Assembly (NCBI GenBank): GCA_963814585.1
Contig: CAWFDF010000003.1
Coordinates: 288,001 to 352,000, forward strand
Source: an uncultured delta proteobacterium
GTDB lineage: Bacteria; Myxococcota; Myxococcia; Myxococcales; Anaeromyxobacteraceae
Direction: 5' to 3'
DNA length: 64,000 bases
Of the stretch, positions 24,545-63,339 are shown piece after piece. Under the pieces are notes generated by a model. The model searched no databases, was not told the DNA's origin, and saw only the letters and a program-made list of their open reading frames with translations. The position numbers and the translations under genes were made by a program. Every line of letters starts with the position of its first letter. Positions within the stretch are counted from its first letter, which is position 1.

Positions 24545-25603
24545 ATGCGCATCGGTCCTCACCACTTCTCCGGCCGCTTCTTCCTCGCGCCCCTCGCCGG
24601 CGTGTCGGATCGCCCGTTCCGCACCATCTGCCGCGAGATGGGGGCGTCGTTCGCCTACACCGAGATGGTGAGTGCCCACGGCCTGCTCCACGGGACGGCG
24701 CAGACGCTCAGCTACCTCGACCGCGATCCGGCCGAGGTGCCGTTCGCCGTCCAGATCTTCGCCTCCGAGCCCGAGGTGCTGGCGCGCGGCGCCGAGGCGG
24801 CGGTGCGGGCCGGGGCCGGGATGGTCGACATCAACATGGCCTGCCCGGTCCGGAAGGTGTGCGGCTCCGGCGCGGGGGCGGCGCTGGCGCGGGATCCCTC
24901 CGCGGTGGGCGGGGCGGTGGCGGCGGTGGTGGCCGCCGTGCCGGGCATCCCGGTCACCATCAAGATCCGGGCCGGCTGGGAGGAAGGGGCCGTCAACTGC
25001 GTCGAGGTGGCTCGGGCCGCCGAGGGGGCCGGCGCCGCGGCGGTGGCGCTCCACGGCCGGACCCGCTCGCAGGGCTACTCGGGGAGGGCCCGGTGGGACC
25101 TGATCGGGGCCGTCAAGGCGGCGGTGGGGATCCCGGTGCTGGGCTCCGGCGACGTCTGGACCGCCGCCGACGCCCTGCGGATGCGGGCCGAGACCGGCTG
25201 CGACGCGGTGCTGGTGGCGCGCGGCGCCTGCGGCAACCCGTGGATCTTCCGCGAGCTCAGGGCCGCGGAGCGGGGCGAGTCGATCCCGGCCCCGCCGACG
25301 CGCGAGGAGTGGGTGGAGGTGGTGATGCGCCACGTCTCGCTCCAGATCGAGCACCGCCTGCGGCAGCGTCCCCACCAGCCGCTCCCGGCGGTGGAGGAGC
25401 ACGCCGTGCGCGAGCTGCGCCGCCACCTGCTCTGGTACTCGCGCGGCCGGCGTGGCGGGGTGGCCTTCCGGCGCGGCGGCACGCTGGTCAGGACCGCCGC
25501 CGAGGTGCGGGCGCTCATCGACGTGCAGTTCCCGCCGGACGCCGCGTGGGAACTCGACGCCGGGGGGGGCCGGGCGCAGGATGTCGGCGGCGAGGACGAA
25601 TGA
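24545..25603 (+). CDS. dusB: tRNA-dihydrouridine synthase
   Basis: LAPLAGVSD.PFR, YTEMVS, DINMACP, PVTIKIRAGW, LHGRTR.QGYSG. Confidence 0.92.
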   Translation: MRIGPHHFSGRFFLAPLAGVSDRPFRTICREMGASFAYTEMVSAHGLLHGTAQTLSYLDRDPAEVPFAVQIFASEPEVLARGAEAAVRAGAGMVDINMACPVRKVCGSGAGAALARDPSAVGGAVAAVVAAVPGIPVTIKIRAGWEEGAVNCVEVARAAEGAGAAAVALHGRTRSQGYSGRARWDLIGAVKAAVGIPVLGSGDVWTAADALRMRAETGCDAVLVARGACGNPWIFRELRAAERGESIPAPPTREEWVEVVMRHVSLQIEHRLRQRPHQPLPAVEEHAVRELRRHLLWYSRGRRGGVAFRRGGTLVRTAAEVRALIDVQFPPDAAWELDAGGGRAQDVGGEDE

Positions 25604-26409
25604 GCGAGCTCCAATCCCTCACGCTCTACACGGGCGCCATCCTGGCCGGGGCCGTCGCCGGCGGCGTGCTGCCGCTGGTCGGCCCCATGCGCCGCAGCGA
25701 CCTGCTGCTCTCCTTCTCGGGCGGCGTCATGCTGGGGGCCGCCTTCTTCCACATGCTCCCCGAGGCCATCGAGCTGGGCGGGGCGCGGGTGGTGCCATGG
25801 GTGCTGCTGGGCTTCCTCGCCCTCTACCTGCTGGAGCGGTTCGTCCTCATCCACATCTGCGGCGAGCCGGGCATGAACCAGGCCCTCTCCACCGCCACCG
25901 TCCACCAGCCGCACGATCACCCCGGCCACGTCCACGGCGACGAGGCCGGCTGCGAGGTCCACACCCTGGGGCTGGCGGCCTGGGTGGGGATGTCGATCCA
26001 CACCATGGTGGACGGCTTCGCGCTGGGTGCCGCCAACCACGAGGCCGGGCTGGGGCTGCTGGTCTTCATCGCCATCCTCGCCCACAAGATCCCGTCGAGC
26101 TTCTCGCTCTCGGCCATCCTGCGTGGCGAGGGGTACGGGCGCCTCAAGGCGCTCTGGATGAACGCCTTCTTCGCCCTCATGGTGCCGGTCGGCGCGGCCG
26201 TCTACGTGGGCCTGCGCGAGCTGGTGGCGGTGGACCGCTTCACCGCCTTCGCGCTGGCCTTCTCGGGCGGCACCTTCCTGCACCTGTCGCTCTCCGACAT
26301 CCTGCCCGACCTGCACCGGCGCGCCGGCTCCAAGTGGCGGCTCACCGGGGCGCTGCTGGTGGGGCTGGCGCTGATGTGGTCGCTCAGGCTCATCAACCAC
26401 GAGCACTGA
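25600..26409 (+). CDS. ZIP family metal transporter
   Basis: FSGGVMLG..HMLPEA, His-rich loop, HTMVDGFALG, HKIP, GTFLHLSLSDILP. Confidence 0.92.
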   Translation: MSELQSLTLYTGAILAGAVAGGVLPLVGPMRRSDLLLSFSGGVMLGAAFFHMLPEAIELGGARVVPWVLLGFLALYLLERFVLIHICGEPGMNQALSTATVHQPHDHPGHVHGDEAGCEVHTLGLAAWVGMSIHTMVDGFALGAANHEAGLGLLVFIAILAHKIPSSFSLSAILRGEGYGRLKALWMNAFFALMVPVGAAVYVGLRELVAVDRFTAFALAFSGGTFLHLSLSDILPDLHRRAGSKWRLTGALLVGLALMWSLRLINHEH

Positions 26410-26419
26410 CCCGGGCGCC

Positions 26420-27625
26420 TCAGCCCTCGCTGGTCACCAGGAAGAGCGGCTTCATCTCGAAGCTCTTGAACTGCGGGCGCAGCCGCTCGGTGCTGTAGTG
26501 GTCCTTCACGCTGACCAGCTTCTTGCTGGCGGTCACCACGTCGAGCGGCACGTTGTCGTAGCGGCCGTTCTTCAGCACCACCAGCCGCCCGTGGATCCCC
26601 TTCATGATGAGGTCGAGCGCCAGGTTGCCGTAGGCCATGGGCACGATGGAGTCGATGGCGTCGGGGTCGCCGCCGCGCACCAGGTAGCCGAGCTTCTGGT
26701 TGATGCACTCGATGGTGCGGCCGCCGTTGTACCTGGCCGAGAGGTCCTTGAGGTGCGAGGCGACCACGTCGCCGATGCCGCCCAGCTTGGCGTGCCCGTA
26801 GGCGTCGGTGGACTCGTCGGCGATGACCATCTCGCCGCCGGAGAACCTGGCCCCCTCGGACACCAGCAGCACCGAGTACTTGGATGGGTTGCGGTTGCGG
26901 TCCTCCACCATGAGCTGGGTGAGCAGCTCCATGTCGAACTTGTGCTCGGGGATGACGCAGCGGTTGGCGGCGCCGGCCATGGTGGGCAGCAGCGCGGTGA
27001 AGCCGGCGTACCGGCCGAAGACCTCCATGACCAGGAAGCGCTCGTGGGAGCCGGCGCTGGTGCGCAGCCGGTTGGTCATCTCGATGGTGCGGGTCACGCA
27101 GGTGGAGAAGCCGATGCAGTAGTCGGTGCCCGGCACGTCGTTGTCCATGGTCTTGGGGATGGCCACCACCTTGACCCCCTCCTGGTAGAGCCGCACGCCG
27201 TAGGAGAGCGTGTCGTCGCCGCCGATGGGGATGAGGTGGTCGACGCCGAGGAAGGCCAGGTTGGCGAGGACGTGCGGCGTCAGGTCGTTGACCTCCGCCG
27301 TGTAGCGGTCCTTGAGGTGGGCCGGGACGGCGGACCGCTTCACGTGGCTGGGACGGGTGCGCGAGGAGTGGAGGAAGGTGCCGCCGGTGCGGCCGGCGCG
27401 GTTCACCACCTCGTTGGTGAGGACCTGGTAGTGCTCGCCGTTGTCGGCCTGGGCGTCGGGGATCATGTCGATGAGGCCGCCCCAGCCGCGCCGGATGCCG
27501 ATGACCTCGTAGCCCTCCCGCCGCGCCGCGATGGTGACGGCGCGGATGGCCGGGTTGAGGCCCGGCACGTCGCCCCCGCCGGTGAGGATGCCGATGACGC
27601 CCTTCCTGGAGTTCACGTTGGCCAC
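26420..27625 (-). CDS. 6-phosphofructokinase (PfkA family, PPi-type signature)
   Basis: ILTGGGDVPGLN, GGDDT, PKTMDND, EVFGR, LGYLVRGG. Confidence 0.93.
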   Translation of the reverse strand: MANVNSRKGVIGILTGGGDVPGLNPAIRAVTIAARREGYEVIGIRRGWGGLIDMIPDAQADNGEHYQVLTNEVVNRAGRTGGTFLHSSRTRPSHVKRSAVPAHLKDRYTAEVNDLTPHVLANLAFLGVDHLIPIGGDDTLSYGVRLYQEGVKVVAIPKTMDNDVPGTDYCIGFSTCVTRTIEMTNRLRTSAGSHERFLVMEVFGRYAGFTALLPTMAGAANRCVIPEHKFDMELLTQLMVEDRNRNPSKYSVLLVSEGARFSGGEMVIADESTDAYGHAKLGGIGDVVASHLKDLSARYNGGRTIECINQKLGYLVRGGDPDAIDSIVPMAYGNLALDLIMKGIHGRLVVLKNGRYDNVPLDVVTASKKLVSVKDHYSTERLRPQFKSFEMKPLFLVTSEG

Positions 27626-27812
27626 CGGGTGCCCCCTGTCGTTGGGCGCCGCGCGAGCGGCGTGTCCGCCAGCGTGTCGGAATCGCGCCCGGGGATGAAG
27701 AGCCCCAAATGGTCGTGCGGCGGGAACGGCGCTCCTGGCGCCCGCGACTGGCCTGGTGCCGCACCCCAGCCACTCGTCCGGCTGCAGGGATCGAGCCGAG
27801 CGGGTGGCGCCT

Positions 27813-28199
27813 TCACGCCACCGTCACCTTCCTCACGCCCCGCTTCACCAGCCAGGCCCCGACCCGCTCGCGGGTGTCTCCCTGCAGGACCAGCGCCCCG
27901 CCCTCGACCACGCCGCCGCAGCCGAGGGCGCGCTTCAGGTCGCCGAGCCAGGCCTCCAGGTCCCGCGGCCGCAGCTCGAGCTTCTCCACCACCGTCACCG
28001 TCTTGCCGCCACGCCCGGCCCGCTCCATCCGGACCACGGCGCGCGCCGGCGGCGGGGGGCCGGCCGGCTTCGGGGCTGGCGCCGCGGGGGGCGGCGCCTC
28101 GACGCCCGGCATGGCCTCTCGGCGGGCAGCCAGCCCGGCCAGGGCGGCGTTGAATGGAGGCGGCCGCGAGGCTGGCGGGGGCTGGTCTCGCTTTCCCAT
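27813..28199 (-). CDS. Translation initiation factor SUI1/YciH family
   Basis: ERAGRGGKTVTVV, LKRALGCGG, LQGD.R. Confidence 0.9.
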   Translation of the reverse strand: MGKRDQPPPASRPPPFNAALAGLAARREAMPGVEAPPPAAPAPKPAGPPPPARAVVRMERAGRGGKTVTVVEKLELRPRDLEAWLGDLKRALGCGGVVEGGALVLQGDTRERVGAWLVKRGVRKVTVA

Positions 28200-28277
28200 G
28201 CGGCGGCCATGTTGGCACGACCGCGGGTCGCCCGGTCCTCCGGTGCGTGCACCCCGACGGCGGCCCCGCGCCCCGCG

Positions 28278-28323
28278 ATTTTACCCGGATGGAATGGACC
28301 GTCGCATTTCCTCCGGGTATAAT
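28278..28323 (+). promoter_or_regulatory. Sigma70-type promoter overlapped by an inverted pair of 18-bp boxes
   Basis: TGGACC (28295)-17 bp-TATAAT (28318); boxes 28278-28295 and 28306-28323 match 15/18 as an inverted repeat. Confidence 0.65.
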
Positions 28324-28330
28324 TCCCGCC

Positions 28331-28933
28331 ATGGACCCGACCCCGACCTTCAGCGCCTTCGCCGGCGACCGGCTCATCGCCGCCGGCCCGCTCGCCACCG
28401 TCCTCGCCGAGGCCAGGGGCTGGCTCGACCGGAAGGAGCGGGCGGCGCTCCTCATCTTCGACGACCAGTCCGGCCGCGCCGTCGACTTCGACCTCCGCGG
28501 CAGCGTGGCGCAGGTGCTGGCCCGGGCCCTGCCTCCCCCTGACGCCACCCCGCGCCCCGGCCGCCCCCGGCTCGGGGTGGTGGGCCGGGAGGTCTCGCTG
28601 CTCCCCCGTCACTGGGAGTGGCTGGAGCAACAGCCCAACGGGATCTCGGCCGCCCTTCGCCGGCTGGTGGACGAGGCGCGGAAGCACGAGCCGGGCCGGC
28701 AGCGGGCCCGGGCCATCCGGGACGCCGCCAGCCGGTTCATGACCGCGATGGCCGGCGACCTTCCGGGCTTCGAGGAGGCCACCCGGGCGCTCTTCGCGGG
28801 TGACGAGCGCGGGGTGGAGCGGCGGGTCCGCGGCTGGCCGGCCGACGTCCGGAGCCACGTCCTGCGCCGGGTCCGGGAGGCGGCTCGCCTGGAGCAGGGC
28901 GACGGGGCGGCGTCCCCCGCCACCCCCGACTGA
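28331..28933 (+). CDS. DUF2239 family protein
   Basis: LIFDDQSGRAVDFDLRG, GRPRLGVVGREVSLLPRHWEWL, FMTAMAGDLPGFEEATRALFA. Confidence 0.88.
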   Translation: MDPTPTFSAFAGDRLIAAGPLATVLAEARGWLDRKERAALLIFDDQSGRAVDFDLRGSVAQVLARALPPPDATPRPGRPRLGVVGREVSLLPRHWEWLEQQPNGISAALRRLVDEARKHEPGRQRARAIRDAASRFMTAMAGDLPGFEEATRALFAGDERGVERRVRGWPADVRSHVLRRVREAARLEQGDGAASPATPD

Positions 28934-28995
28934 GCGGCCGGCGGCGCGGATTTGCTAGGATGGCGGCTCCCTCGCCGTCCGAACGGAGCCCGCCG

Positions 28996-29610
28996 GTGCA
29001 GATCGTCTGCCTCGACCTCGAAGGGGTGCTGGTCCCCGAGATCTGGATCGCCTTCGCCGAGCGCACCGGGATCACCGAGCTGCGCCGCACCACGCGCGAC
29101 GAGCCCGACTACGACAAGCTGATGCGCTTCCGGCTCGACCTGCTGCGGCGCCACCGGCTCGGGCTGCGCGACATCCAGCAGGTGATCGCCGGCCTGGCCC
29201 CCGAGCCGGGCGCGCGCGCCTTCCTCGACGCCCTGCGCCGCGACTTCCAGGTGGTGATCCTCTCCGACACCTTCTACGAGTTCGCCGGACCGCTCATGGC
29301 CCAGCTCGGCTTTCCCACCCTGTTCTGCCACCGGCTCGAGGCCGACGCCGAGGGCTTCGTCGCCGCCTACCACCTGCGCATGCCGGACCAGAAGCGGGCC
29401 GCGGTGAAGGCCTTCAAGGAGCTGCAGTTCAAGGTGATCGCGGGCGGCGACTCCTACAACGACACCGCCATGCTGGGCGAGGCGCACGCCGGGATCCTCT
29501 TCCGCCCGCCGTCCAACGTGGCGGCGCAGTTCCCGCAGTTCCCGGTGGTCCGCGAGTTCGACGCGCTCCGCGCCGCCATCGACGCCGCCGGCGCCCGCCT
29601 CGGCGGCTGA
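28996..29610 (+). CDS. thrH: Phosphoserine phosphatase / homoserine phosphotransferase (HAD)
   Basis: CLDLEGVLVPEIW, TTRDEPDYD.LM, ILSDTFYEF, GDSYNDT.ML; GGAG before GTG. Confidence 0.92.
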   Translation: MQIVCLDLEGVLVPEIWIAFAERTGITELRRTTRDEPDYDKLMRFRLDLLRRHRLGLRDIQQVIAGLAPEPGARAFLDALRRDFQVVILSDTFYEFAGPLMAQLGFPTLFCHRLEADAEGFVAAYHLRMPDQKRAAVKAFKELQFKVIAGGDSYNDTAMLGEAHAGILFRPPSNVAAQFPQFPVVREFDALRAAIDAAGARLGG

Positions 29611-29626
29611 CCCGGGAGGAGTGCCC

Positions 29627-31040
29627 ATGCGGCTCGACGGAGAGCTCCTCGACGGTCCCCGCACCAGCGGAGCGCGCGTGCTGGCGCTGGGCCGGCTCGC
29701 CGACGCCGAGGAGGCCGCAGCGCGGCTCGCCACGCCGGGCGACGCCGAGGCGCTGCACGACTTCCGCGTCGCGGTCCGCCGGCTCCGCTCCACGCTGCGG
29801 CTGCTGGCCCCGGCCCTGGAGGGGACCCTCACCGCGAGGCAGCTGCGGCGGCTCGCCAAGGTGGCGCGGCGCACCGGGCCAGCCCGGGACGCCGAGGTGC
29901 TGGTCGCCTGGCTCGAGCAGGCACGCGGCCGCCTGGGCGCACCGTACCGCGGCGCGCTCGACTGGCTCCTCGACCGGATCGAGCGGCGCCGCGCCGAGGC
30001 CACGCGCCGGGTCCTCGAGGAGGCGCTGCCCCGCTTCCGCCGGCTGGCGCCGCGCCTCTCCCGTCGGCTCTCGGCCCGTCCGGCGCCTGGCCCGGACGGC
30101 CCGGCCACCCTGGCGGCCCTCCTGGCCGGCGCCGTCCGCGCCCAGGCGCGCGCCCTCCGCGAGGCGCTCGGCGCCGTGGTCGGCGGCGAGGACGCGGTGG
30201 GCCTGCACCGGGCCCGCATCGAGGGGAAGCGGCTGCGCTACCTGCTCGAGCCGCTGCGCGGACTGCCCGGCCTCCGACGCCACCGAGGCGGTGGCCGCGC
30301 TCAAGGGGCTGCAGGACCTGCTCGGCACCTGGCACGACCTGCACCGGGCCCGCGAGACGCTGGCCGGGACGCTGGTGGAGGCGGCCGCCGACCGGGCTCG
30401 CCGGGGCCGCGACGCCGGGAGCGGCGACCTGCGCCCCGGGTTGCTGGCCATCGACCAGCTGGCGGCCCGCCAGGCGGCCGAGGTCTTCGGCCAGCTCGCC
30501 GAGCGCCACCTGAGGTCGCGCGCCTCCGCCATCCTCGACCTCGCCTACGCGGTGGTGGCGGGCCTGGAGGGCCCGGCGGACCAGGACCCGGCCCCGGAGG
30601 CCGCCGCGGAGCGCCGGCTGCTCCTCACCGGCCTGCCGGTGGAGGCCTCGGGCGGCCAGGTCGAGGAGGCGGCGCTGGGCTGGCTCCCGGGCGAGCGCGA
30701 GCACGTCGGGCGGGTCCACTCGGCCCTGGGCGAGGGGTGGTTCCGGGAGCGCCCCTCCTCGCGGGGCTCCGTCGAGATCTCGGCGATCGCCCGCTCCGAC
30801 TTCGAGGCCTGGTGGCCGCTCACCGAGGGGCGGCGGCTCACCCGCCGCAGCCACCGGGTGGCGGCCCTCCCGGGCTGGCGCTTCGACGAGTTCACCGACC
30901 GGCGGCTGGTGCTGGCGGTGATCGAGCCGGGCGGGGAGCCGACGCCGCCGGCGTGGCTCGAGCCGGTGCTGGTCCGCGAGGTGACCGACGAGCGCGGCTA
31001 CCGCGACGAGGCGCTGGCCCGGCGCGCCCCTCGGAGCTGA
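29627..31040 (+). CDS. CHAD domain protein with CYTH-like C-terminus (frameshift near 30270)
   Basis: EALHDFRVAVRRLRS, LHRARIEGKRLRY, then LKGLQDLLGTWHD in another frame; ERRLLL..LVREVTDE..Y. Confidence 0.8.
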
Positions 31041-31130: not shown

Positions 31131-33187
31131 ATGCCGTTCACCTTCCAGCCCGGGGCCCGCGACGCCGCGACCAACGCCCGCCGCGGCGCCTTCACCACGC
31201 CCCACGGCCGGGTGGAGACCCCGGCCTTCATGCCGGTCGGGACGCGCGGCACCGTCACCGGCCTCACCCCCGCCGACCTCGACGCCCTGGGCGTCGAGAT
31301 CATCCTCGGCAACACCTATCACCTGCTGCTCCGCCCCGGCCCCGAGGCCATGCGCGGCTTCGGCGGGCTCCACCGCTTCATGGGCTGGGACCGGCCCATC
31401 CTCACCGACTCGGGCGGCTTCCAGATCTTCTCGCTCCCCGGCTCGCGCACCATCAGCGAGGAGGGGGCGCGCTTCCAGAGCTACGTCGACTCGAGCTACC
31501 ACCGGCTCTCGCCCGAGACCTCCATCGCCATGCAGGAGGCCATCGGCTCCGACGTGATGATGGTGCTCGACGTCTGCGTCCCGTCCACGGCGGGCGAGGA
31601 CGGAGATCCGGGCGGCCATGGAGCGGACCCACCGCTGGGCGGTCCGCAGCCTGGAGGCCCGCACCAGCCGGGAGCAGGCGCTCTTCGCCATCGTGCAGGG
31701 CGGCCTCTCCACCGCCATGCGCCAGGCCTCGGCCCGCTTCCTCACCCAGCACCCGTTCGACGGCTTCGCCATCGGCGGGCTGGCGGTGGGCGACACCCGG
31801 GCCCAGCGGTTCGACGTGGTGGGCACCGCCGCCGGCCTGCTGCCCGCCGACAGGCCGCGCTACCTGATGGGCGTGGGCACGCCGCCCGACCTGCTCGAGG
31901 CCATCGCCCACGGCGTCGACATGTTCGACTGCATCATCCCCACCACCCTGGCCTGGCAGGGGACCGCCTTCACCGGGACCGGCCGGGTGCGGCTCACCCG
32001 CGCCGAGTACCGGCTCTCCGACGCGCCGCTCGACCCGGACTGCCGCTGCCCCACCTGCCGGCTCCACGGCCGCGGCTACCTGCACCACCTGATGAAGTGC
32101 CGGGAGCCGCTGGCGCCGCGGCTGCTCTCCATCCACAACGTCCACCACTACCTCGCGCTGATGCGGTCCGCCCGCGCCGCCATCGAGGCGGGGCGCTACG
32201 GCGCCTTCATGCGCGAGACGCTGGCGCGGATCGACCGGCACGAGCACGACTCGAGCGGCCGCTCGCCGGGGCGCCGCGCCGCCGCCCCGCCCCCGGCCGC
32301 AGCGCCCACCCCGCCCACCCCCGGGCTCCGCTTCGAGATCGTCGCCACCGCGAGCGGCGAGCCGTCGATGCGCGACGCCGAGGCCGGGGAGGTGATGCAC
32401 CCGGTGATCGGCGCCGCCGTCGAGTCGGAGCGGCTCTACGTGGCCCAGTCCCGCCTGGCGGCCCGGCTCCTCGAGCCCGGCCACGGCCCGCTGGTCCTCT
32501 TCGACGTCGGCCTGGGCGCCGCCGGCAACGCGCTGGCCGCCATCCGGGCCGCCCGGGCCGCCGGGCCCGGCCACCGGCCGCTCGCCGTGGTCAGCTTCGA
32601 GCGGGAGCTGGGGGCGCTGGCGCTGGCCGCCTCGCCCGAGGGGGCGGCCCGGCTCGGCTGGCCGGCCGCGGACGCCGCGGCGGCCGCGGGCGCTGCTGGT
32701 GGCGGGTGCCACCAGGAGCCGGGCGTCACCTGGCGGCTCCGCCTCGGCGACGCGCTGGAGCGGATCGACGCCGAGGCCTGCCCGGGCCGACCTGGTCTTC
32801 TGGGACCCCTTCTCACCCAAGGTGAATGGCGCGCTCTGGACCGCGGGCGCCTTCTCGCGCCTGGCCGCCCGCTGCGCGCCGGGCGCCGCCCTCTTCACCT
32901 ACTCGACCGCCACCGCCACCCGGTCGGCGCTGCTGCTGGCCGGCTTCACGGTGGGGCACGGCGACGCCTCGGGCCCGAAGGAGGAGACCACCGCCGCGAC
33001 CCTGCCGCCGGCCCTCCCGGCCCGACCGCTCGACGACCGCTGGCTGGCGCGCCTGGCCCGCTCCTCGGCCCCCTTCCCGCCCGACGCGCCGGTCGATGCC
33101 CTGGCCCGGATCGGCGCCTTGCCGCAGTTCCGCCAGGCCGACCGCGGCCGCCCGGCCGGGGCGGGACGGGGAGCGTCCAGGATTTAG
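31131..33187 (+). CDS. tgt: tRNA-guanine transglycosylase fused to an MnmC-like SAM methyltransferase (frameshifts near 31600 and 32785)
   Basis: ETPAFMPVGT, NTYHL, LTDSGGFQ, IVQGG, AIGGLAVG, PRYLMGVG, DMFDC, CRCPTC..HN; then FDVGLGAAGNA, DLVFWDPFSPKVN..LW, TYSTA..RSALLLAGF. Confidence 0.85.
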
Positions 33188-33219: not shown

Positions 33220-34674
33220 ATGCGAACCGCACCTGCCCGGGTCCTGCTCCTGCTGTCCCTCGCCCTCTCGGCCTGCGTCGCGCACGACAAGGCCGGCGAC
33301 CGCGCCGCCGCCCTCGGCGACTGGAAGGCCGCCTACACCGAGTACCGCCAGGCGGTGGCCGACGAGCCGAACGATCCGGCGCTGAAGCAGAAGTACGATC
33401 GGGCCCGCGCCGAGGCGCTCGCCGGCGCCACCGCCGCGGCCAGGGGGTGCCTGGCCCGGCGCGAATGGGCCTGCGCCGTGAGCGAGGCCGACTTCGCCCT
33501 CTCCATCGACCCCGGCAACACCGAGCTCTCCGACCTGCGGCGCAACGCCGGGCGGGAGGCGGCGCTGGTGCAGGTGGAGCAGGCCCGCGGCCTGGTGGCG
33601 CAGGGGCAGCTGCAGCGGGCCGACGCCACCCTCCGCGAGGTCCAGCGCCTGTCCAGCGATCCCAGGGTGCAGCAGGCCGTCTCCCCGGTGGCCGGCGCGC
33701 TGGTCACCGCCGCCGTGGCCGAGTCGGACCGGCGGCGCGCCGCGCGCCAGTTCCCCGAGGCGCTGGCGGTGCTGCAGCTGGCCCTCCCCTACGAGCCGGC
33801 CATGCGAGAGCGGATCGAGATGGTGAAGCGCGAGCAGGCGGCGTTCCTCAAGGCCGAGCACGACCGGCTCATGGCGGAGGGCGACCAGCTGCTGACCCGG
33901 AGCGCCTGGACCGAGGCCGCCGCCCGCTTCAAGGCGGCGCAGGCGGCCGTCCCCGACGAGCGGGGCCGCGCCGCCGAGCAGTACTGCCGCCTGGCGCTGG
34001 CCGCCGACGCCGCCGTCGAGCGTGGCGACTGGCCGGCCGCGACGCGCGGCTACCAGGAGATGATCGACCTGCGGGTGGAGCGGAACGGCTACGCCGCCGC
34101 CCAGCTCGGGCGCGTCGCCATCCGCCCCTGGGCCATCCGCATCCGCTCGGTGCTGGTCTCGCCGCTGCGCCCCGACGGCGTCCCCTGGGTGGGCCCGCCG
34201 AGCCGGTCGGCGGTCAAGGTGGCCCACGAGGTGGTGCGGATCGGCGGCGGGGAGCTCACCGTGCCGTTCCTGCTGCTGCTCAACCAGCTGCCTCGCGAGA
34301 ACCAGCCGAGCGTGGTGATCGAGGTGACCGCGCCCGGGGCCAGGCCGCTGCTCACCCAGCCCCACCGCGGCCTCTACACGACCCTGGCCAGCTCGGTGGT
34401 GGTCGGCGCCAACGCCTTCGAGCGGCGCACCGTCCGCCTCCGCGTCTTCCACGTCGAGCGAGGCGGCGTCGCCGAGGACATGGGGGTGATCGAGGCCTCG
34501 ATCGGCGACCTGATCACGCGCGGGAGGCTCACCCTCCAGTCCGAGTCGGTGCCGGCCCTGGAGCTCTCGGCCGAGCCGGCCCCCGGCGTGGCGCTGGGCA
34601 GCGTCGTCGACCTGACGCCGGCCGCGCCGCCCCCGCCGCCGCCCGCTCCGGGTCCGCGGCCGCCGGGGCGGTGA
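33220..34674 (+). CDS. Lipoprotein with TPR-like helical repeats and a C-terminal beta domain
   Basis: Lipobox LSAC; repeated helical motifs (GDWKAAYTEYRQA, ALSIDPGN). Confidence 0.75.
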   Translation: MRTAPARVLLLLSLALSACVAHDKAGDRAAALGDWKAAYTEYRQAVADEPNDPALKQKYDRARAEALAGATAAARGCLARREWACAVSEADFALSIDPGNTELSDLRRNAGREAALVQVEQARGLVAQGQLQRADATLREVQRLSSDPRVQQAVSPVAGALVTAAVAESDRRRAARQFPEALAVLQLALPYEPAMRERIEMVKREQAAFLKAEHDRLMAEGDQLLTRSAWTEAAARFKAAQAAVPDERGRAAEQYCRLALAADAAVERGDWPAATRGYQEMIDLRVERNGYAAAQLGRVAIRPWAIRIRSVLVSPLRPDGVPWVGPPSRSAVKVAHEVVRIGGGELTVPFLLLLNQLPRENQPSVVIEVTAPGARPLLTQPHRGLYTTLASSVVVGANAFERRTVRLRVFHVERGGVAEDMGVIEASIGDLITRGRLTLQSESVPALELSAEPAPGVALGSVVDLTPAAPPPPPPAPGPRPPGR

Positions 34675-62626: not shown

Positions 62627-63339
62627 CCAGGGCCCGTCCCGTCCGCGCCGTCGTCCTGCTCTCCGGCGGCCTCGACAGCACCACCTGCCTGGCCGCGGCG
62701 CTGGCCGCGGGCCGGGAGGTCCACACCCTCTCGGTCGACTACGGCCAGCGCCACCGCGGCGAGCTGGGCCGGGCCCGGGCGCTGTCCGGCGCGCTCGGCG
62801 CCGCCGGCCACCACGTCGTCAAGGTCGATCTCTCCGGCTTCGGGGGGTCGGCGCTCACCGACGCCACCATCGCGGTGCCGAAGGGACGTGGCGCCAGCGC
62901 CATGGCCAGCGACATCCCGGTCACCTACGTGCCGGCGCGCAACACCGTCATGCTCTCGCTGGCGCTGGCCTACGCCGAGGTGATCGGCGCCGAGGAGATC
63001 CACGTCGGCGTCAACGCCGTGGACTACTCCGGCTACCCCGACTGCCGGCCCGAGTTCCTGGCCGCCTTCGAGCGGCTGGCGCGGGTGGCCACCCGGGCCG
63101 GCGTCGGCGGCCGACCCATGCGGATCGTGGCCCCGCTGCTGCGCCTCTCCAAGGCCGGGATCATCGGGCTCGGCACCCGTCTCGGCGTCCCTTACGGCCG
63201 GACGCAGTCCTGCTACGATCCCGTCCGCGGCCGGGCCTGCGGGCGCTGCGACGCCTGCCAGCTCCGCCGCAAGGGCTTCGACGAGGCGGGCATCCCCGAT
63301 CCGACCCGCTACGCGCGGGCCACCAGGCGGAGGGCGTGA
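62623..63339 (+). CDS. queC: 7-cyano-7-deazaguanine synthase
   Basis: [47 protein letters not shown]. Confidence 0.97.

Follow-up and report, generated by a model that had tools for sequence, protein, structure and literature searches.

Bacterial Tgt inserts preQ1 at G34 of the tRNAs for Tyr, His, Asn and Asp. In the window analysed here, a stretch of 64,000 nucleotides from an uncultured delta proteobacterium (contig CAWFDF010000003.1), a gene on the + strand (31131–33187) joins a Tgt domain to an MnmC2-like methyltransferase, and the question raised by this locus is which base, and in which nucleic acid, such a pair modifies. A sequence-only reading had proposed that the fusion could insert preQ1 and then N-methylate it, giving a non-queuosine wobble base, with a different nucleic acid as another candidate target and two independent wobble enzymes in one chain as the plainer alternative. 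Based on profile searches, trees, structural models and genome comparisons, the account considered here to be reasonably probable is that the Tgt domain, a second Tgt hereafter termed Tgt2, would insert preQ1 at an RNA hairpin-loop site other than the GUN wobble position, where the methyltransferase would then N-methylate it.

Gene Structure and Assembly Errors

The locus corresponds to a single gene encoding a protein of 684 aa once the indels are read through, as evidenced by Pfam, tblastn and short-read contigs. PF01702 matches positions 31131–31604 and 31606–32688 and PF05430 matches 32786–33184; using an intact 669-aa homolog as query, tblastn found three reading frames spanning the gene. 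Short-read contigs from near-identical strains, all belonging to runs of one study that is possibly the source campaign of the assembly, identified the extra base at 31601 as an assembly error (absent in two of the four runs) as well as three further assembly indels in the interval 32687–32780, namely bases at 32687 and 32780 that the contigs lack and one base after 32703 that they have in addition (three of the four runs). The corrected frame contains no internal stops and is 86–89% identical to intact homologs. The Pro/Ala-rich linker (32245–32328, + strand), the length of which varies, is covered without gaps by one short-read contig (32226–32418) and holds neither a stop nor an indel. Thus, the proposal of a fusion with no stop between its domains was borne out, as was the placement of the frameshifts outside the linker; the count of two frameshifts has to be revised, as two of the four indels are net shifts and the other two, which had been overlooked, compensate each other.

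Both Pfam domains are present in all 120 long homologs among the matches listed, the named ones being mostly Anaeromyxobacter-like. The fusion is real and a chance joining is rejected. A pseudogene and a programmed frameshift were also ruled out, because the frame is open again in the short-read contigs and because this assembly has a frameshift in its canonical tgt, too.

In a structural model of the fusion (pLDDT 92, pTM 0.63) both domains are well folded and the linker is of low confidence, and the arrangement of the domains is not readable from it; a complex prediction for a split pair of Tgt2 and methyltransferase reached a score of 0.02 vs a mark of 0.32. Only PF05430 clusters were retrieved from the ESM Atlas, a promoter and terminator scan for the fusion gene found none, and RNA runs contained no more than small shares of the fusion-gene words.

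Directly upstream of the fusion lies a CHAD-domain gene (29621–31040) that is split over two frames, probably by another assembly indel, and its second part has no Pfam match. Genes for a Dus-family tRNA dihydrouridine synthase, a phosphofructokinase, SUI1/YciH, DUF2239 and thrH are located within 7 kb upstream (24551–29610) and are not conserved beside the homologs. The lipoprotein-like ORF located downstream (33220–34674) matches TraC of myxobacterial outer-membrane exchange only weakly (E 4e-5), with a score well under the cut-off.

Tgt2 Is a Second, Divergent Tgt

A canonical tgt separate from the fusion was found on contig C14, where it adjoins queA, followed by a gene which, recognised by eye from its translation, we take to be yajC-like; queF, queG and queC are also present in the genome. 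The last of these, encoding the preQ0 synthase that supplies the precursor, lies in the window as had been noted (62644–63288, + strand), 29 kb from the fusion gene and unlinked to it, and therefore its presence says nothing on linkage. Among the matches listed, a second Tgt was detected in 72 of the 74 genomes carrying Tgt2, and the R..R motif of canonical Tgt was confirmed in the 12 of these genomes in which it was checked; queA was found in 73 of the 74. Regarding the Myxococcota with a single Tgt (about 85 genomes), the canonical motif is present in all of the best 16 by score. One myxobacterial genome (G113) encodes three Tgt2 paralogues, one fused and two stand-alone, in addition to canonical Tgt.

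A tree with 181 Tgt domains, built like all trees of this work with FastTree only and from sampled genomes that are kin, places the fused and the partnered Tgt2 in one clade of 73 rows (SH 100). Profiles, alignment and a homolog model assign the Tgt2 domain of the fusion (31131–32244, + strand) to a Tgt paralogue with a TIM barrel, a Zn site and a preQ1-type pocket. All the motifs quoted for it in the sequence-only reading were recovered (TDSGGFQ, LDVC, QGG, GGLAVGD, FDCIIPTTLAWQG and CxCxxC...H), and the catalytic Asp residues are encoded at 31407 and 31927 on the + strand. A set of 46 non-redundant Tgt2 domains shows no exception (100%) at either catalytic Asp, at the base-binding Asp/Gln/Gly/Met, at Val233 or at the acid (Glu/Asp) in position 235; Cys158 is conserved at 98% and the Zn ligands lie within 98–100%. 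In a numbering that is partly our assumption, the pocket residues Asp156, Cys158, Gln203, Gly230, Val233 and the acid at 235 are those of a bacterial Tgt. In the subclade of this gene position 235 is occupied by Asp instead of Glu, which may alter base choice. The intact homolog P0002 scored 446.8 vs a cut-off of 306.75 for TIGR00430, and its model superimposed on Z. mobilis Tgt with a TM(target) of 0.95 and an rmsd of 1.2–1.6. QTRT2-like accessory subunits are inactive and have lost the catalytic Asp and the base pocket; this identity was rejected for Tgt2, which keeps all of them.

The clearest losses among the positions that are near-invariant in canonical Tgt are two Arg and an adjacent Val, while Lys52 is variable. 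Based on the alignment and tree, the FDCIIPTTLAWQG motif (31924–31962, + strand) has Thr and Trp at the two invariant Arg positions of canonical Tgt. The two Arg of PTRxxR(N/H)G are kept in none of the 73 Tgt2 rows vs all 108 canonical rows, which extends to the whole clade the loss that had been reported for the single gene. The corresponding residues of Z. mobilis (R286, R289, V282 and K52) are those that, presumably, read U35 in its Tgt-RNA structure (1Q2R). As their replacements differ among the Tgt2 subclades, specificity may have been relaxed rather than switched. PMC10164549 states no more than that the Tgt insertion at issue makes sequence-specific contacts with the anticodon loop and that the placement of Val233 admits preQ1. 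Considering the conserved catalytic and pocket residues together with the lost Arg, Tgt2 looks able to catalyse the exchange and to use preQ1, but to read its RNA in a different way.

It is conceivable, although unlikely, that the same product is made at the ordinary site. In that case the G34 preQ1 of GUN tRNAs, either all of them or a part, would be N-methylated and thereby diverted from QueA, and Tgt2 would either insert the base or form a pair with canonical Tgt and so tether the methyltransferase. The retention in Tgt2 of positions which we take to form the dimer interface (Tyr330, His333, Phe92 and mostly Glu339), the nearly constant co-occurrence of canonical Tgt and QueA with Tgt2, and the fact that preQ1-34 tRNA is a known intermediate are consistent with this possibility; however, all 73 Tgt2 have lost the two Arg that GUN-specific Tgts invariably carry, conservation of both catalytic Asp and the base pocket at 100% would be surprising in a mere tether, and the modification would be in competition with the complete Q pathway. 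Since Tgt and QueA already act at the GUN wobble position, a non-GUN site makes the best sense of a separate, dedicated Tgt whose RNA contacts have changed. The tRNA set of the genome was examined and gave nothing pointing to the target.

Distribution and Co-inheritance of the Two Halves

Among the genomes sampled, Tgt2 was detected in 33 of the 121 from Myxococcota, 32 of the 111 from Bdellovibrionota and 2 of the 131 from Verrucomicrobiota; Riflebacteria and Steroidobacteraceae contributed single cases. The methyltransferase of the fusion family accompanies it in 72 of the 74 Tgt2 genomes (in one of the two misses Tgt2 sits at the end of a contig) and in 32 of the 33 Tgt2-bearing Myxococcota (the exception being at a contig end), and no case of this methyltransferase without Tgt2 was found among the 121 Myxococcota genomes. 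The two halves occur fused, adjacent, about 11–16 kb apart or on different contigs, and the fused or unfused status switches at least four times on the methyltransferase tree. Split pairs, which often overlap their stop and start codons, are the usual form in the sampled Myxococcaceae; Myxococcus xanthus DK1622 carries the methyltransferase half (ABF88137.1).

Beyond close kin, no conserved neighbouring genes were detected in 41 loci plus the window. Relatives of the Tgt2-methyltransferase pair were found neither in viral contigs nor in phages, and in plasmids no match exceeded 52% coverage. In two unrelated genomes a DTW-domain gene is located near the fusion (L012, 5442–6098; L125).

These observations bear on whether the pair acts on a different base or nucleic acid, such as another amine-bearing 7-deazaguanine, rRNA, a non-tRNA hairpin or, as in the Dpd systems, DNA, which is decidedly unlikely. 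The altered RNA-contact motif, the Glu235-to-Asp replacement in this subclade, the patchy occurrence across phyla and the existence of a genome with three Tgt2 copies would suit a target of this sort, but the pocket residues are those of the preQ1-using Tgt, and the lack of conserved neighbours of any kind in these loci argues against it, as does the lack of relatives in viral contigs, phages and, over that coverage, plasmids. DNA, which had been left as a candidate target, is thus unsupported, with neither conserved neighbours nor viral or phage copies. Membership in the Dpd DNA modification systems was examined and rejected, as there is no dpd cluster or phage context and the PF05430 domain lacks the CxxxCxxCC motif of DpdM. 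Insertion of preQ1 into an RNA loop remains the preferred reading, and the properties of the partner enzyme are considered below.

A Methyltransferase Clade Apart From MnmC2

The C-terminal half of the fusion (32329–33187, + strand) was assigned by Pfam, Foldseek and tree to the class I SAM methyltransferases with the MnmC2/DUF752 fold, within a Tgt2-associated clade. It contains EVMHP, DVGLGAAGN, SFE, WDPFSP and TYS motifs together with a family-specific C-terminal extension, and the stretches FDVGLGAAGN, WDPFSP and TYST that had been pointed out earlier are all present. The nearest structure is that of Aquifex MnmC2 (PDB 3VYW; best Foldseek match, E 1e-16, TM 0.74). The class I fold, the GxGxxN SAM loop, the motif II Glu, the DxF Asp, the motif VI Tyr and the RNA-binding Lys are kept, in line with the SAM, amine-activating and RNA-binding Lys features of MnmC2 as described in portions of PMC3648344 and PMC3527978.

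Of the profiles, PF01702 and PF05430 were matched and the cut-off of the MnmC2 profile NF033855 was not reached: four family members scored 55.6–82 bits, one of them 69.5, against a cut-off of 136. In an unrooted tree a branch (SH 99) separates the clade of family methyltransferases (78 rows) from the MnmC2-like sequences (20 rows), and the scores across genomes are bimodal, with the main intact copy above 230 bits vs MnmC2-like genes below 80 bits. The methyltransferase of the fusion is the sole PF05430 match in this genome. A further MnmC/MnmC2-like gene occurs in 16 of the 32 Bdellovibrionota carriers, and one full-length MnmC-like gene of this phylum that was scanned scored above both MnmC domain cut-offs. 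Within the Tgt2-associated clade, nine stand-alone methyltransferase paralogues of Bdellovibrionota make up their own sub-branch; none of them is near a tgt gene, which counts against the proposed reading, and most belong to genomes in which a fusion exists already.

The genes that would provide the substrate of MnmC2 were surveyed in the same genomes. mnmG is present in 57 of the 74 Tgt2 carriers and was not found in the other 17, and both mnmE and mnmG were not found in 15, this genome (92% complete) included. These 15 carriers comprise three single-contig genomes, members of all three Tgt2 subclades and all 11 other sampled genomes of the subclade of this gene; the two carriers with mnmE and without mnmG probably reflect assembly gaps. 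In five of the 15 the best GidA-like matches correspond to TrmFO. Where mnmE and mnmG were not found, nm5U, the substrate of MnmC2, should therefore be absent. Against this reading stand the 57 carriers that do have mnmG and the lack of MnmM, which was detected in none of the 74 carriers. As the family methyltransferase is the only MnmC2-like gene found in Myxococcaceae, where MnmM is lacking too, a second role on nm5U is possible in this group. On the side of preQ1, queF was found in 72 of the 74 carriers (one match being weak) vs 73 of 80 non-carriers from Myxococcota and Bdellovibrionota, and it does not discriminate because it is near-universal in carriers and non-carriers alike.

Some genomes depart from the general pattern. 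One carrier (G011, 92% complete) has Tgt2, the methyltransferase and canonical Tgt, with queF and queA not found. In family f1 mnmE and mnmG were not found in the nine carriers and mnmE was also not found in the one non-carrier, and in family f10 mnmE was not found in any of the nine genomes.

That the methyltransferase is simply the MnmC2 of the organism, converting nm5s2U34 to mnm5s2U34 next to an independent or tRNA-binding Tgt half, as database names imply, is very unlikely: Aquifex MnmC2 is the nearest in fold and sequence, no other PF05430 match exists in the genome, MnmM is missing from all carriers and the main text of a preprint (10.1101/2023.12.21.572861) places the architecture among MnmC2 fusions, but mnmE and mnmG were not found in this genome and the whole sampled subclade among the 15 carriers, 69.5 bits fall below the cut-off of 136, and the separate clade is tied to Tgt2 and coexists with MnmC-like genes. 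The alternative of two independent wobble enzymes is similarly weakened by the presence of a canonical tgt, by mnmE and mnmG not being found and by a separate methyltransferase clade that tracks Tgt2 even when unfused.

Proposed Modification Pathway

To our knowledge, tRNA has no bases with an aminomethyl group other than nm5U and preQ1. Since nm5U seems to be unavailable and the methyltransferase is constantly paired with a transglycosylase of the preQ1 type, the simplest reading is that preQ1 is inserted and then N-methylated. Tgt2 would swap G for preQ1 by means of its conserved Asp pair, and the methyltransferase would then apply SAM and the DxF Asp to the primary amine, a chemistry equivalent to that of MnmC2 on nm5U. 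The product would be 7-(methylaminomethyl)-7-deazaguanosine in RNA; the reverse order, in which free preQ1 would be methylated and then inserted, would give the same product. N-methylation would cap the preQ1 amine against QueA. The weakest step of the proposal concerns the target, which would have a non-U base 3' of the G and might most simply be a tRNA with G34 followed by A, C or G35. The insertion and N-methylation suggested in the sequence-only reading fit every comparative test made here. As for the site, the loss of the arginines argues against GUN anticodons, so that the “wobble base” is a candidate only.

In a broader and more tentative formulation, which we regard as possible though somewhat short of an even chance, the pair might represent a third branch of bacterial 7-deazaguanine biology, in which preQ1 is directed to a non-GUN G34 or another RNA loop and capped by a repurposed MnmC2 as N-methyl-preQ1, a purine counterpart of mnm5U. 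This branch would operate alongside queuosine in Myxobacteria, Bdellovibrionota and some Verrucomicrobiota, with the subclades possibly reading different neighbouring bases. The TGT subtypes known to us are fixed to G34 of GUN tRNAs, archaeal G15 or DNA. If the proposal is true, a conserved, apparently active paralogue and its partner methyltransferase would add a new TGT target class and a modified ribonucleoside, and many myxobacterial “MnmC/MnmD” genes and second “tgt” copies would be mis-annotated.

Comparison With Known Systems

Neither a functional study of the fusion protein nor N-methyl-preQ1 in RNA was found in the part of the literature searched. The available parts of PMC4033218, PMC10639084, PMC12632869, PMC13602947 and PMC12313893 do not mention the fusion. 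The architecture itself is already known, since TGT-MnmC2 fusions with the same domains appear in the main text of 10.1101/2023.12.21.572861 as one clause within a list of MnmC2 fusions, drawn from genomes pre-selected for MnmAGE; function, paralogue status and split forms were not found in that main text.

N-methyl-preQ1 is likewise already known from phage DNA, where DpdA and DpdM make mdPreQ1 according to the sections consulted of 10.1101/2023.04.13.536721. The logic and the base proposed here are the same, namely a transglycosylase that inserts preQ1 and a methylase that adds the N-methyl group; however, the phage target is DNA and, as described in those sections, DpdM is a DUF3109 Cys-rich metal protein whose fold is unrelated to the Rossmann methyltransferase of the fusion.

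Compared with the bacterial tRNA-guanine(34) transglycosylase (TIGR00430; Z. mobilis 1Q2R, E. coli 10FB), Tgt2 shares the fold (TM 0.95) and about 44% identity, having the catalytic Asp pair, the preQ1-type pocket and the Zn site in common and an HMM score over the cut-off. It differs in being a second copy outside the queA-tgt-yajC locus, in its own clade and coupled to a methyltransferase, and in lacking both Arg of the PTRxxRN motif. With MnmC2/MnmD and Aquifex DUF752 (3VYW; NF033855; PF05430) the methyltransferase has the class I fold and the SAM and amine motifs in common, whereas it is 24% identical, scores below the family cut-off, belongs to a separate clade with its own C-terminal extension, has lost the Arg after the RNA-binding Lys and is kept where mnmE and mnmG were not found. 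Altogether, the Tgt2-methyltransferase pair would appear to work like Tgt plus MnmC2, yet judged by sequence comparison it falls outside what defines both the GUN-specific Tgt and MnmC2.
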